Positions 11,141 through 19,700 are shown, counted from the stretch's first letter. The stretch: DNA of 42,882 bases from a virus (IMGVR_UViG_3300033521_000722:1-42882); one strand, 5' to 3'. The notes: a model not told the origin generated them from the sequence alone. A program made the numbers and translations.

Positions 11141-12151
11141 ATGAATTTCTGGAGGGAGAAATCGTTGTGGTTGCCGTTGGCTCTGATTATTTTTTTCGAG
11201 TACATGATTCAGCGTGGGTTTGCAACGTTTGCTAAAGCACCACAGCTTGCAAGCCTCAACATCACGGATGCTCTGTCCGTCTATTTTCTAACGATGTCAT
11301 CTGTTGTCCTGATCGGTGGGATTCTTCTGGATAATTTTTCCTCAAGGAAACTACTGCTGGGTGCGACACTGATGGCGACCATAGGTCTGATAACCATACC
11401 CTATACCATTTGGGGATTTGGTTTGATCTTTGGTTCAGCATCTGCCTTACTCAAACTTGCACCCTTTACAGCTCCGTTGAAGCTGAAGGACGGTGAGGAT
11501 GCGTACAGGATAGCACCGCAAGCGAGTGCTAAGAACTTTGGTGGCGCATTCTTTTCTATTGTAATGGGCACACTCCTTCTCAGCTCCGGGCTGGCCTTGA
11601 GTATGACAGTGCTCGGGTTTATGTTTCTCGCAGTAGGCTTGTGGGCATATTACTCCTTACCTGATGACAAGGTTCAAGGCTGGAAGTGGAGCATCTTCAA
11701 AGATCTCGCCAAGGATAAGCTGTTCTGGTTGTTCATGCTCTACTTCTTTTTCATGAATGCGATCTACTATGTGGCTGTTGCCCAGCTGTACCCCTCGTTG
11801 GTTAAGACGGGTTGGAGCAAGCAGGGAGCCATATACCTTATCGCTGGGAGTTATGTGCTGGCTGGCATTCTGAGGTTCCAGTGGGGGAAAGCGATTGACG
11901 CTTCAAGCCAACGGCTCAAGATGATCTTGATGTTTGCTGGGAACGTCTGCATGGCAGCTCCGATCTTTTTTGCCAACACATACCCGATGGGCTCTTTGAT
12001 TATCTTCACGATCTTCTCTGCGATGAACACCCCGATCTATTGGGCGTATGCGAAAGCGCAGTGGGGTAGCAAGTATATATCCACAGTTATTGGCCTTGGC
12101 TTCGTTTCGATGTACCTTGGTGCCGGGTTGCTCTACGGGAAGTGGGTATGA
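11141..12151 (+). CDS. MFS-like membrane transporter (336 aa, compact)
   Basis: GGAGG RBS; about 11-12 hydrophobic segments; motif-A-like GILLDNFSSRKL and its second-half echo WGKAIDASSQR. Confidence 0.75.
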   Translation: MNFWREKSLWLPLALIIFFEYMIQRGFATFAKAPQLASLNITDALSVYFLTMSSVVLIGGILLDNFSSRKLLLGATLMATIGLITIPYTIWGFGLIFGSASALLKLAPFTAPLKLKDGEDAYRIAPQASAKNFGGAFFSIVMGTLLLSSGLALSMTVLGFMFLAVGLWAYYSLPDDKVQGWKWSIFKDLAKDKLFWLFMLYFFFMNAIYYVAVAQLYPSLVKTGWSKQGAIYLIAGSYVLAGILRFQWGKAIDASSQRLKMILMFAGNVCMAAPIFFANTYPMGSLIIFTIFSAMNTPIYWAYAKAQWGSKYISTVIGLGFVSMYLGAGLLYGKWV

Positions 12152-12930
12152 TTGTCAGCAATAACCTTGCAGAGATAGGACGGTTGGCACGGGAACTGCC
12201 ACAGCCTCTTGGGATATGGACAGTCCACACAAAGATTCATGCTGGGCACAGATATCTCTATGACAAGATTTCCAGAAGGTGCAACAGCATGGTGGGTGTG
12301 TACTTTCTGAACTGGCAGTATTGCAGGGCAATTATTGGTGGGGCAGAGCATATTGATCAGCTCCCCATTGATCTCGAGACAGTTCATGAGCTATGGGAGA
12401 AGTGTGATCTTGTCTGGATTATGGAAGGGACAGATCTCGGGCTTCCTCATGATGAGATACCAGAGAGACTTGCTAGAGCGATTGACCAGCTTCCAGACGA
12501 GAACATTCCAGAGTTTGTGAGGAATGACAAAGGGCAGATGGCAACACTCAGAACCTCCCAGGTTACCAGGGTGCCTCTTCTCACACACATCCCTGTTAGT
12601 GTCTGCGGGGGATCATTGAAGGATGCGTGGAGACCTGTTTATAATGTGTGGCACAGAGAGCAGTTTCCAAAGATAGTGTTGTTATGGGTTGACCCACTAA
12701 CAGATAAGTATGGCAATAGTTACTGCTCAAGCATGCCAGCGGAGATGGTAGCTCGGATAACCAAGCCCTTGCTGCTTCCCCACTTCAGAAGCATTGAAGA
12801 GGTTAGGGAGAACATTAAAGACATAGAGGGTCTGAGTGTCACTTACTTTGTGTATGACCCGATGATGGAGTATCTGTACGCACAGTTCACTGTTGGTGAC
12901 AGGTACTGGAACTTTGGAATTCCCTTATGA
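12148..12930 (+). CDS. divergent PanC-fold (pantoate--beta-alanine ligase-like) HIGH-motif adenylating enzyme 1
   Basis: IHAGH, VGVYFLNWQY, CDLVW, GSLKDAW and DPLTDKYGNSYCSS are collinear with PanC LHDGH, VSIFVNPMQF, VDLVF, GEKDFQ and PIMRAKDGLALSS; ATGA-coupled start at 12148. Confidence 0.65.
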   Translation: MIVSNNLAEIGRLARELPQPLGIWTVHTKIHAGHRYLYDKISRRCNSMVGVYFLNWQYCRAIIGGAEHIDQLPIDLETVHELWEKCDLVWIMEGTDLGLPHDEIPERLARAIDQLPDENIPEFVRNDKGQMATLRTSQVTRVPLLTHIPVSVCGGSLKDAWRPVYNVWHREQFPKIVLLWVDPLTDKYGNSYCSSMPAEMVARITKPLLLPHFRSIEEVRENIKDIEGLSVTYFVYDPMMEYLYAQFTVGDRYWNFGIPL

Positions 12931-17922: not shown

Positions 17923-19230
17923 ATGAATCAGAACGATCTCTTAGTTGAAAGTTTCTTGAATCGCACTTTTTTCAAGGCTTGGAAAAGCCCTACTGACGAG
18001 GCTTTCAACAACTACAGCCACCTAGAGGTTCAGCTCAGTGGTGAGTGTGATCTTCGGTGCAAGTACTGTTACTTAGCAAAATTCAAGAAGGATTTGTACC
18101 CGGCTACGATTGGGCACAAGGAAGATGTGCTGCATAACCTGGACATCCTAATGGCTTGGCTTGAAGAGAACAAGATGTACCCTGTCTTCGAGATCTTTTC
18201 TGGTGAGCCTTTTGCTAAGGACGTAGGGTATGAGGCTGCGGATAAGATCCTTGACTTCTATGGGAGGAATGGATTGAAGCCAATGCTGTCCACTCCAACA
18301 AACATGTCATTCCTTTTCGATGAGGAAAAGACAGAGAGGATGGAGGGACTCCTGGCAAAGGCAGAGAATTTGGGTATTGGCTTTCATCTCAGTGCATCTG
18401 TAGATGGAAAGTTTTGTGAGGAGAATCGACCTTTCAGGGATGGGAGAAAATATACTGATGATTACTACGACAAACTTTTTAACTTTGCTCAGAAGCATTC
18501 TGTTGGCTTCCATCCTATGGTCTATAGCAATAACATTGAGAGGTGGAAAGAAAATTTTCTGTGGTTTCAGGAGATGTTCAAGAGATACGGAATCAGTCCG
18601 TTGAAGCTTTATCTTCTGGAAGTTCGCAATAAAGAGTGGTCCAGGCAACAGCTGAAGGACTTCTATGATTTCTGGAAGTTTGTGATGAGGTGGATAGTTG
18701 ACTTTGCTCCTGTCAAGAAAGAAGATCTACCCAAGTGGTGTCACCAGCATAAGCCCTTCAATGTTACTACCTTGTGGGGGACGGTAGGTAGAGGGATGGG
18801 TTGCTCAGTACAGTCAACAGTACAGCTCAGGGTTGGAGACCTGACAGCCTCTGTTTGTCATCGTTGTGCGTACAAGTCAACCAACCTCTGGAAGTTTGCA
18901 GTGGAGAACGACAAGATAGTGGGCATCAAGGCAATTAACCCGGAGCTGTTGATTGCTATGGAGACTATCCACACAAGAACAATGCCACAGTGTGAGAGCT
19001 GCTTTGTTGGTCACTTCTGCACAGGGCAGTGCCTTGGGTCAATGTTTGAAGTGAACCAAGATCCGTTTATGGTAATACCAACTGTGTGCGCCTTGGAGCA
19101 TATCAAGGTTGCAGCAACATTTGATGGGCTAAAGGAGAAGGGTGTGCTGGCTTACTTTTATGATTGGTGCAACCCGGAGAAGAAGATTGTGGTTGACCAG
19201 TATCTGGAAAGATTCATGGGGGGAAAATGA
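17923..19230 (+). CDS. radical SAM/SPASM enzyme 2
   Basis: CDLRCKYC; FSGEPF; ASVDG; GCSVQ...VCHR...CESC-x5-C-x3-C...C, a full SPASM cysteine pattern. Confidence 0.92.
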   Translation: MNQNDLLVESFLNRTFFKAWKSPTDEAFNNYSHLEVQLSGECDLRCKYCYLAKFKKDLYPATIGHKEDVLHNLDILMAWLEENKMYPVFEIFSGEPFAKDVGYEAADKILDFYGRNGLKPMLSTPTNMSFLFDEEKTERMEGLLAKAENLGIGFHLSASVDGKFCEENRPFRDGRKYTDDYYDKLFNFAQKHSVGFHPMVYSNNIERWKENFLWFQEMFKRYGISPLKLYLLEVRNKEWSRQQLKDFYDFWKFVMRWIVDFAPVKKEDLPKWCHQHKPFNVTTLWGTVGRGMGCSVQSTVQLRVGDLTASVCHRCAYKSTNLWKFAVENDKIVGIKAINPELLIAMETIHTRTMPQCESCFVGHFCTGQCLGSMFEVNQDPFMVIPTVCALEHIKVAATFDGLKEKGVLAYFYDWCNPEKKIVVDQYLERFMGGK

Positions 19231-19700
19231 ACTTTGAAACTGTGAAGAAAGTTCTTAGCAAGGGTAATGGGAATATTCTTTCTCCTGGTGTAGCCACTCA
19301 GGTGGAAGTGATATCCAAGGTAATGATAGAGGATCTCGAATTGAGCCCACCTTCTCAGCTTGCTTCTGAGGACAGGGTCTTCGAGGCACTCACAGCTGTG
19401 TCTGATGCATTCATGAGCAAGGGGTTCGACAAGAATGGTGAGGCTGTGATTGAGGCTTTTGTGCTCCTTACGTATAACTGGAATGAGAATGTTTACAAGT
19501 CAGACATACTCGGTACCTTTGCTAGGAGCATGAAGAAACTGATCGACAGCTACAAAGTCAACAGGAAAGTGTTCCGGGTTATGAGAGAGACACTCATAAG
19601 AGACATGTCCCTCAAGAATTGGGTTCAACCATCAATCAATATCACCAAGGAATACTTGAGCCAACTCCTAGAGGAGACAAACAATGGCAATGGATTTTGA
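19227..19700 (+). CDS. small helical rSAM-associated protein 2 (157 aa)
   Basis: ATGA-coupled to rSAM2; TYNWN and WVQPSI motifs; paralog of 15183..15635. Confidence 0.75.
   Translation: MNFETVKKVLSKGNGNILSPGVATQVEVISKVMIEDLELSPPSQLASEDRVFEALTAVSDAFMSKGFDKNGEAVIEAFVLLTYNWNENVYKSDILGTFARSMKKLIDSYKVNRKVFRVMRETLIRDMSLKNWVQPSINITKEYLSQLLEETNNGNGF

Follow-up and report, generated by a model that had tools for sequence, protein, structure and literature searches.

Introduction

Radical S-adenosylmethionine (rSAM) chemistry on peptides is familiar from small natural products and from a few cellular proteins. Among the systems that act on repeats, HXS uses two rSAM enzymes and a small partner on a repeat substrate of full size, and the periplasmic repeat effector that it matures prevents the entry of phage DNA (PMC13128918). 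Further rSAM enzymes are PapB, which links Cys to the methylene of Asp in CXXXD motifs (PMC12373016), CrpC, which introduces ranthionine linkages into a large repeat protein (PMC13692751), and TvgB, the TVGG-repeat cyclopropylglycine synthase, whose iterative, Cys-free chemistry acts on a tetrapeptide repeat (PMC9062424). On the virion side, gp38 docks by Trp prongs on the tip of gp37 after chaperone cleavage (PMC7917993). Here we describe an rSAM gene module in IMGVR_UViG_3300033521_000722:1-42882, a 42.9-kb provirus record whose entire 42,882 nucleotides are referred to below as the window.

The conserved unit consists of five genes, which encode two rSAM enzymes (rSAM1 and rSAM2), a helical partner and two repeat substrates (A and B). 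On balance we favor the explanation that this module, placed behind a fibre-tip gene, makes a chemically stiffened two-chain needle that is predicted to cap a trimeric fibre and would serve in host attachment.

Results

Conservation and co-inheritance of the five-gene module

rSAM2 and a 65-sequence alignment were scanned against viral, metagenome and genome collections. A tblastn threshold of E < 1e-30 gave 81 ortholog loci including the window, and 69 remained after removal of near-duplicates; distant rSAM loci (L041-L054, L056-L075 and L092-L101; tblastn E > 1e-30) and copies of the window (L001, L004 and L005) were dropped before all counts. The homologs of rSAM2 numbered 673. rSAM1 was found upstream of rSAM2, within 4.2 kb, in 56/56 non-redundant loci with enough flanking DNA, and the partner family was present in 44/63 loci, or in 44/45 once a clade of gut phages was set aside. 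Tree distances of the two enzymes were closely correlated (Mantel rho 0.91, 52 loci), with 16 of 26 supported splits common to both trees, and the window was sister to locus L012 in each. A hidden Markov model (HMM) of the substrate N-terminal module detected substrates in 24/43 loci; most of the 19 loci that it missed were inspected and carry divergent repeat substrates (gut clade, L002, L014 and three of HxsA type). The substrate-A profile matched 1687 clusters at 50% identity, and cultured phage records held no match to either rSAM.

A major facilitator superfamily (MFS) transporter, two PanC-like proteins (X1 and X2) and a second partner were confined to 2/33 long loci, i.e., the window and L012; the nine-gene form is therefore a version of the five-gene core particular to one lineage. 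PanC-like genes occur additionally in the truncated locus L086. The window features are as follows.

10349..11128, + strand: short fibre protein with a phi29-gp12-type intramolecular chaperone (by profile homology), the proposed docking site (outside the span of the initial annotation)
11141..12151, + strand: MFS transporter, accessory (PF07690 above cut-off)
12148..12930 (listed open reading frame (ORF) from 12142), + strand: X1, probably PanC-fold, with intact HxGH, accessory (motifs shared with L012)
12927..13838, + strand: X2, PanC-fold by a three-sequence profile and Atlas rows, with degenerate ATP-binding motifs, accessory
13835..15196, + strand: rSAM1, core (CxxxCxxC plus Cys 290, 309 and 414), adjoining rSAM2 in the loci counted above
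15177..15635 (listed ORF from 15168), + strand: partner 1, core family (predicted all-alpha bundle)
15635..16807, + strand: substrate A (rep1), with two Trp/helix modules, Cys74 and a 319-residue tetrapeptide tail
16807..17913, + strand: substrate B (rep2), with one module, a 336-residue tetrapeptide tail and a single Cys366
17923..19230, + strand: rSAM2, core (CxxxCxxC plus SPASM Cys 294, 312, 357, 360, 366, 370 and 389)
19227..19700, + strand: partner 2, a lineage-specific duplicate of partner 1

The initial annotation of this DNA, made from the sequence alone, had described nine co-oriented and nearly all tightly joined genes at 11141..19700, and the ORF list and junctions bear this out. 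All nine are on the + strand, and their eight internal junctions comprise four ATGA overlaps (X1 being taken from the ATG at 12148), two TAATG junctions, one 20-nt overlap (partner 1 starting at 15177) and one 9-nt gap. Close packing extends beyond the cassette, with a 12-nt gap to the fibre gene at 10349-11128 and a 17-nt overlap into the gene at 19684; since the neighbors are packed equally tightly, the cassette is a segment of a virion-gene operon rather than a separate unit. Promoter and terminator scans gave no signal above chance level. That all genes except the transporter form diverged pairs proved correct for the partners (E 1e-5) and for the repeat proteins, which are 41% identical and have homologous N-terminal modules (hhalign 98.8%). 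The rSAMs share the core motif only, their BLAST alignment being limited to 48 aa around it, and X1 and X2 have little in common beyond an HxGH-type motif, which does align (no similarity by BLAST; profile probability just 1.1%). The annotation's proposal that rSAM enzymes form a dedicated module for modifying repeat proteins is supported by co-occurrence and co-divergence, whereas its assignment of all nine genes to one system is not supported: co-occurrence extends to rSAM1, rSAM2, partner and repeat substrates, but not to the PanC-like pair.

Two side observations concern the loci themselves. L009 (5344-8447) has a duplicated rSAM1 start, with inserted endonuclease-like ORFs around rSAM1. 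Stop-codon recoding was seen in L002, L018, L023, L025-L029, L039, L040 and L126; several gut-type phages read TAG as Gln, L018/L055 read TGA as Trp, and in some recoding loci the substrate gene alone needs recoding.

Radical-SAM enzymes and helical partner

Both rSAMs contain CxxxCxxC and have weak Pfam Radical_SAM matches. Beyond this motif, three Cys in rSAM1 and seven in rSAM2, the latter in a SPASM pattern, are invariant in 52/52 loci. We read the three in rSAM1 as one auxiliary cluster; in anSME-type numbering, both enzymes would presumably have the three-Cys first auxiliary cluster and rSAM2 alone the second. Neither rSAM reached any NCBIfam cut-off, the best family for both being PapB (NF047865; 52.3 and 38.7 bits against a cut-off of 340). 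The nearest solved relatives of rSAM2 were 5wgg (E 1.9e-9) and 8vpo, which we take to be CteB and TigE, respectively. The motif Cys lie at residues 25 and 42, leaving no space for an N-terminal RiPP recognition element (RRE; RiPP, a peptide made on the ribosome and modified after translation).

The AlphaFold2 (AF2) model of partner 1 has seven helices and zero strands (predicted local distance difference test (pLDDT) 89.5), and this confidently modeled all-alpha bundle is therefore not a winged-helix RRE. In the fold search, Foldseek returned no match at E 0.001, and the best Z of 9.8 (root-mean-square deviation (rmsd) 3.0, 121 aligned) is generic for helical bundles; a partner profile search of the PDB found nothing below E 0.07.

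Substrate tails keep a four-residue register and matched lengths

Pooled homolog tails were strongly periodic when compared with shuffles, with z of 24-36 at lags 4, 8 and 16, peaks at lags 4, 8, 12 and 16, and troughs at 2, 6 and 10. Identical residues at lag 16 were encoded by different codons in 96/159 and 85/153 cases (approximately 60%), which argues that the repeats are maintained at the protein level. The window tails are rich in Asp, Thr, Val, Ala and Asn, with one and two His, respectively. Tail lengths of A and B were correlated across loci (Spearman 0.76, kinship among loci being ignored), with 17/30 pairs within 8 aa as against 3.4 by permutation, and the match spans approximately 40 to 336 residues. 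The two window tails are similar in length although their 16-mers differ. In four loci with unequal tails (L006, L007, L015 and L024) the difference is 36 residues, approximately one module length.

A register model was trained with Cys hidden. In this Cys-blind model, Cys fell at register B in 106/114 cases, and successive Cys were spaced by a multiple of 4 in 43/57. The common residues at register B are Asn, Asp, Tyr, Cys (approximately 6%), Arg, Lys, His and Leu, every one of which has a beta-methylene, the type of carbon that PapB attacks in CXXXD motifs (PMC12373016). Rare residues, among 1937 sites, are Gly (2), Pro (1), Ser (3), Ile (3), Thr (11), Ala (13) and Val (16). Register A likewise disfavors Gly (3), Pro (5), Ser (6), Thr (8) and Cys (4) among 1969 sites, with Val making up 17%, and registers C and D hold small residues. 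In the window, register B is Asp or Asn at 144/162 sites (rep1 69/78, rep2 75/84), and its Asp fraction of 0.66 is the highest of 33 loci, other Asp-rich loci being L102 (0.56) and L013 (0.45). Each window chain has a single Cys, and the repeats are mostly without cysteine. In another assembly, one contig spans 15599-17332, including the whole of rep1, with zero differences; that run is possibly the source of the window DNA itself.

Three N-terminal modules behind a fibre-tip gene

The substrate N-terminal module comprises approximately 36 residues with a Trp, a Gly-x-x-Ile and a helix. Substrate A has two modules and substrate B one in all 30 loci in which both were measured, while L014 has three genes of one module each. 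In gut-phage substrates, a region matching both A modules (hhalign 93%, E 3e-7) and a third segment of the same pattern ahead of it lie within one chain, and the total per locus is thus usually three (2+1, or 3 within one chain). Trp5 is invariant in both A and B (29/29), as is Trp41 of A. The AF2 model of one such gut-phage substrate (L030) shows three helices (pLDDT 84-94) followed by a tail with pLDDT of 41-50, and the three modules are accordingly modeled, i.e., predicted, to fold as three helices. Foldseek searches of PDB and BFVD with this model were negative at E 0.001, and its best Z of 7.6 was to generic helical bundles. Vps30/Beclin BARA rows (Z 7.0, rmsd 2.9, 99 aligned) were within the common range; this domain would presumably fit a three-repeat helix bundle. 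Module profiles searched against PDB or PHROGs gave nothing useful.

A Cys follows the last module in 123/150 top homologs; window rep2, L012-B, L016-B and four A proteins are without this junction Cys. In one locus (L124) the substrate is fused behind a LamG domain. Among gut-clade loci, the rSAM pair of L031, L027 and L021 lies next to substrates whose Ser/Asn/Gly/Cys repeats have period 5 or 9, and the helical partner is missing.

The gene ahead of the module has a fibre-tip signature in 18/25 loci, consisting of a phi29-gp12-type chaperone in 8, the same junction pattern followed in 6 by a small CxxC-type domain, which we infer to be a chaperone as well, and an end at the junction in 4. 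Of the remaining seven loci, two are truncated, and in five the signature is present either directly or at a distance of one more gene. For the family of the fibre gene at 10349-11128, a 15-sequence profile matched the phi29 pre-neck appendage (E 2e-4), and the isolated chaperone crystal 3gqh begins at the aligned Asp. The fibre is predicted to autocleave before D127 (codon at 10727), leaving a tip that ends in V-F-A. Fibres without a chaperone stop one residue past the conserved aromatic, i.e., at the same point where cleavage would end the others.

The initial annotation had called the repeat proteins leader-bearing. The N-terminus is better read as a structural docking module, an anchor rather than a RiPP leader, since it is the tail and not the module that travels with the enzymes; in L115 and L127 the enzymes and partner keep period-4 tails with an HxsA-type N-terminus. 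Its suggestion that the product may be a virion filament rather than a released peptide gains support from the fibre-tip context. It had noted no leader peptidase in the cassette, and no signal peptide or peptidase is evident among the cassette proteins.

A proposed needle and its possible chemistry

Taken together, these data suggest the following assembly. The fibre protein of 10349-11128 would trimerize and its C-terminal chaperone, recognized by homology, would cleave itself off. Two A modules and one B module, in the numbers counted above, would then form a three-helix pseudo-trimer, as predicted on the single-chain homolog, and plug onto the tip in the manner of T-even gp38 on gp37. The A and B tails, being of equal length, could lie side by side, while rSAM1 and rSAM2 would process them one tetrapeptide at a time, with the partner acting as chaperone or substrate holder. 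The finished needle may then serve in attachment. That the tails are the rSAM substrates is very likely, and that the product is a fibre-tip appendage is likely.

We propose that the reaction begins with hydrogen abstraction at the register-B beta-methylene (Asp/Asn here; Cys, Tyr, Lys, Arg and His elsewhere) and ends in closure as i/i+4 links or desaturation, or as thioethers from Cys sulfur to B+4 where Cys is present; the second rSAM may act at register A. Such beta-carbon chemistry at B sites is the likeliest single option, although we put it forward with reserve; alpha-epimerization comes close behind, thioethers at Cys only would be unlikely, and some other chemistry is less likely again. 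Ser/Thr ether links in each unit were set aside, Ser or Thr being at C or D in only 1374/1892 units.

In a fuller epimerase account, which we consider rather unlikely, the appendage is the same and the enzymes invert one or two alpha-carbons per tetrapeptide, turning the tail into a D/L helix with all side chains outward and no mass change. The register is indeed kept while side chains vary widely, Pro, Gly and residues bearing a heteroatom on the beta-carbon are kept out of register A, and homolog tails show little hydrophobic alternation (960/1744), the one modeled being without a confident all-L fold. Against this, registers A and B contain hardly any Gly, a residue suited to a D position, both rSAMs retain the Cys patterns of auxiliary clusters, and the families with which they score highest are cross-linking ones; nor is there an additional invariant Cys as hydrogen donor, unless one of rSAM1's three serves.

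Observations that weigh against the needle

Several observations weigh against the needle and its register-wide modification. Gut-clade substrates are mostly without the Trp residues and the partner, some having period 5, and the single-module HMM scores most gut-clade modules no better than shuffles. The chaperone motif in the window is D-Y-A-D, where most relatives have Glu at the final position (D-x-A-E). As many as 13/30 tail pairs differ by more than 8 aa, L106 and L110 carry a third tailed gene without a helix module, and L123 keeps both enzymes and partner with a His-Gly-Ser substrate showing no period-4 signal. The residue at Cys+4 is Asn or Asp in just 47/110 cases. In the window tails, register A alternates hydrophobic and polar residues (73/79 and 71/83; period 8), and rep1 is above cut-off for DUF2345 and Gp5_trimer_C (PF10106 / PF22178), albeit in low-complexity matches, with no row for rep2; given this alternation and the two beta-helix Pfam matches, the window tails might adopt a fold without modification. 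Register B itself might reflect a ladder of Asn, Asp or Cys at a turn of a solenoid. Beta-helix Pfam searches of three homolog tails gave one weak row, below cut-off, and homolog tails are mostly without the alternation.

In another account, the tails fold unmodified as beta-solenoids or multi-chain beta-helices, with the enzymes making only a few Cys thioethers at the module-tail junction, which we regard as improbable. It would draw on the frequent junction Cys, on C74-x3-N and the beta-helix matches of rep1, and on the precedent of CrpC, which modifies a large repeat protein (PMC13692751). Against it stand the proteins without a junction Cys, listed above, the retention of two enzymes in every one of the 56 loci for just one or two Cys per chain, and a register constraint that extends over the entire tail.

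Accessory genes of the window lineage

The MFS gene scored 50.5 bits for PF07690 (cut-off 33.4). X2 belongs to the PanC fold as judged by its profile, built on three sequences, which matched pantothenate synthetases (best E 3.6e-5), and by its top three Atlas rows, all PanC. X1, which has HxGH and K-D motifs in common with L012, is probably PanC-fold; its profile search of the PDB gave no match, and its Atlas rows were weak PanC (TM 0.32-0.33, low-confidence model). Neither X1 nor X2 found a PDB match as a single sequence, and PF02569 gave no row for window proteins, with homologs at 12.9 and 19 bits, under the cut-off of 20.7. HxGH is intact in X1 and in the X2 of L012 and L086, and reads H-T-P-A-H in window X2 and P0122. 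X2 had just one further homolog in a large protein set, and pattern scans with the X1/X2 alignments returned the L012 contig alone. L012 contains an extra rSAM-like gene (5566-6708) between X1 and X2, with weak cobalamin-type methyltransferase matches, that is missing from the window. Elsewhere, a GT4-like glycosyltransferase lies near the module in 14 other loci (GT4 Pfam rows for some) and is fused to rSAM1 in L077 and L103, and another glycosyltransferase-like gene occurs in seven gut-clade or L002 loci.

The tails of L012 contain no Asp (0/15 register-B sites) despite the presence of X1 and X2, which disfavors iterative amidation of tail Asp. The PanC-like ligases of the initial annotation, proposed to act in this way, are on these grounds, and given the motif of window X2, unlikely to do so as a shared function. 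A broader version, in which all nine genes cooperate, the PanC-like pair amidating tail carboxylates, before or after the rSAM steps, with an amine imported by the MFS, also appears improbable. The order MFS, X1, X2, rSAM1, partner is kept in L012 and the pair follows the partner in L086, window register B is the most Asp-rich, and X2 is of PanC fold; but these genes occur in two long loci only, L012 tails (99- and 75-residue substrates) are Asp-free, X2 motifs are degenerate, and the Asp-rich L102 and L013 show no such genes in available flanking DNA. Whether MFS, X1 and X2 touch the appendage at all is close to evenly balanced, tilting towards no; we propose that they are optional tailoring genes of the window lineage, in the position where other loci have a glycosyltransferase.

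Copies in cellular genomes

Cellular records are metagenome-assembled genomes labeled, as deposited, Parcubacteria, Paceibacterota, Saccharibacteria, Colwellbacteria and Iainarchaeum, i.e., candidate phyla radiation (CPR) and DPANN lineages. TatC lies within 5 kb of the module in six loci (L106, L109, L110, L103, L120 and L111; Pfam rows for three); in L106, L109 and L110, substrates A and B are present together with TatA-like genes and a fibre-tip gene of miniature size. In L115, L123 and L127, the two rSAMs and partner are part of an HXS operon whose HxsB and HxsD score above cut-off, and the HxsA-type substrate has a period-4 tail in L115 and L127 (z 6.9 and 11.9). L123 also contains a run of approximately eight further rSAM-like genes. 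In the unrooted trees, the closest loci to L115 and L127 are L102 and L007, both of viral type, which makes capture of the cellular copies from viruses likely. The location of the module next to Tat genes in CPR/DPANN genomes suggests that a single attachment device may be common to viruses and to symbionts attached to a host.

The presence of the trio in HXS operons also bears on a strict RiPP or non-virion product, in which the modified tails are either released as peptides or active in the host envelope, for example in superinfection exclusion like HXS, whose effector is periplasmic (PMC13128918). The window being a provirus with an MFS gene would suit this account. It is nonetheless a distinctly improbable one, as no signal peptide or peptidase is evident in a cassette that lies among virion genes, and the three-module rule, fibre-tip adjacency and LamG fusion indicate a structural role.

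Other genes in the window

Terminase, portal, major capsid and SU10-type adaptor genes lie 3' of the cassette, and the sequencing runs matching the window are wetland metagenomes of a single study. A 346-aa protein at 8821-9861 has approximately 21 tandem 12-residue repeats around W-[K/R]-I; its Pfam rows look spurious and it was not seen in related loci. Two tandem paralogs at 3779-5214 (237 and 230 aa) have weak CBM_5_12 rows and are followed by a 1023-aa Ala/Thr/Gly-rich fibre-like protein with no family match. At 35722-42882, a + strand frame of more than 2,300 codons is open to the window end and probably encodes a large internal virion protein.

Discussion

We advance tentatively, as a possible general statement, that every tetrapeptide of a 40-560-residue protein is radically remodeled, cysteine being unneeded, by an obligate rSAM pair, the resulting attachment needle being mounted on a fibre tip by a 2+1 pseudo-trimer, in viruses of bacteria and archaea and in CPR/DPANN symbionts that took over the genes. 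The remodeled needle is proposed to be a continuous i/i+4 ladder or a D/L pattern. The family is wide, missing from cultured-phage records and largely Cys-free, which points to an iterative reaction not known so far. If true, both the rSAM chemistry and the class of virion part would be new, and the needle would provide a genetically encoded stiff nanorod of tunable length. The initial annotation knew of no described system with such a gene set, and searches by title and abstract start, over a literature set made up mostly of open-access papers, found neither a description of it nor a report of rSAM chemistry on virion fibres. The module is real and would be a new form of rSAM protein maturation, possibly with new chemistry.

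By function, the system can be likened to HXS, the CXXX-repeat system, PapB/CrpC and TvgB; by the defining features examined, it falls overall outside each. Like HXS (PMC13128918), it joins two rSAMs and a small partner to a repeat substrate, and the trio even lies within HXS operons. In sequence the two differ, rSAM1 scoring 22.4 against 370 bits (HxsB) and 15.2 against 267.9 (HxsC), with no row for rSAM2. The partners had no HxsD (TIGR03976) row at E 0.1, whereas the true HxsD of L115/L123/L127 passes, and His-Xaa-Ser repeats are absent from the His-poor window tails. In the window, docking modules are found on two substrates encoded in a virion operon, where HXS has one periplasmic defense effector. 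With the CXXX-repeat system the module has in common the strict four-residue spacing, which Cys keeps where present. It differs in its scores (TIGR04115, 23 and 14.3 against 350 bits), in having two enzymes, and in a register B of mostly Asp, Asn and Tyr with little Cys.

The ranthisynthases PapB, CteB, QhpD and CrpC gave the best HMM and PDB matches; rSAM2 has their two auxiliary-cluster Cys sets, C-x3-D/N occurs at the start of many tails, and CrpC likewise acts on a large repeat protein (PMC13692751). The NF047865 scores are nevertheless far under the cut-off, an N-terminal RRE is absent and the partner model is without beta strands; Cys are too few here for repeated thioethers, and there is an obligate second enzyme, rSAM1, with a reduced Cys set. 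TvgB resembles the module in iterating Cys-free chemistry over tetrapeptides, but it needs Val in a fixed motif of a short precursor (PMC9062424), while here no register is fixed to one residue.

The gp37-gp38 pair of T-even phages and S16 (PMC7917993) offers the same succession of an autocleaving-chaperone fibre and a small Trp-bearing protein, here proposed as tip cap. This likeness is one of context and holds outside the gut clade, whose substrates mostly lack the conserved N-terminal Trp. The chaperone here is of phi29 gp12 type, the cap is split 2+1 over two genes with rSAM enzymes attached, and the tails are acidic tetrapeptide repeats in place of a polyglycine receptor domain. To the systems compared, this locus adds a Cys-poor register, an obligate enzyme pair, a 2+1 cap, matched tails and cellular capture.

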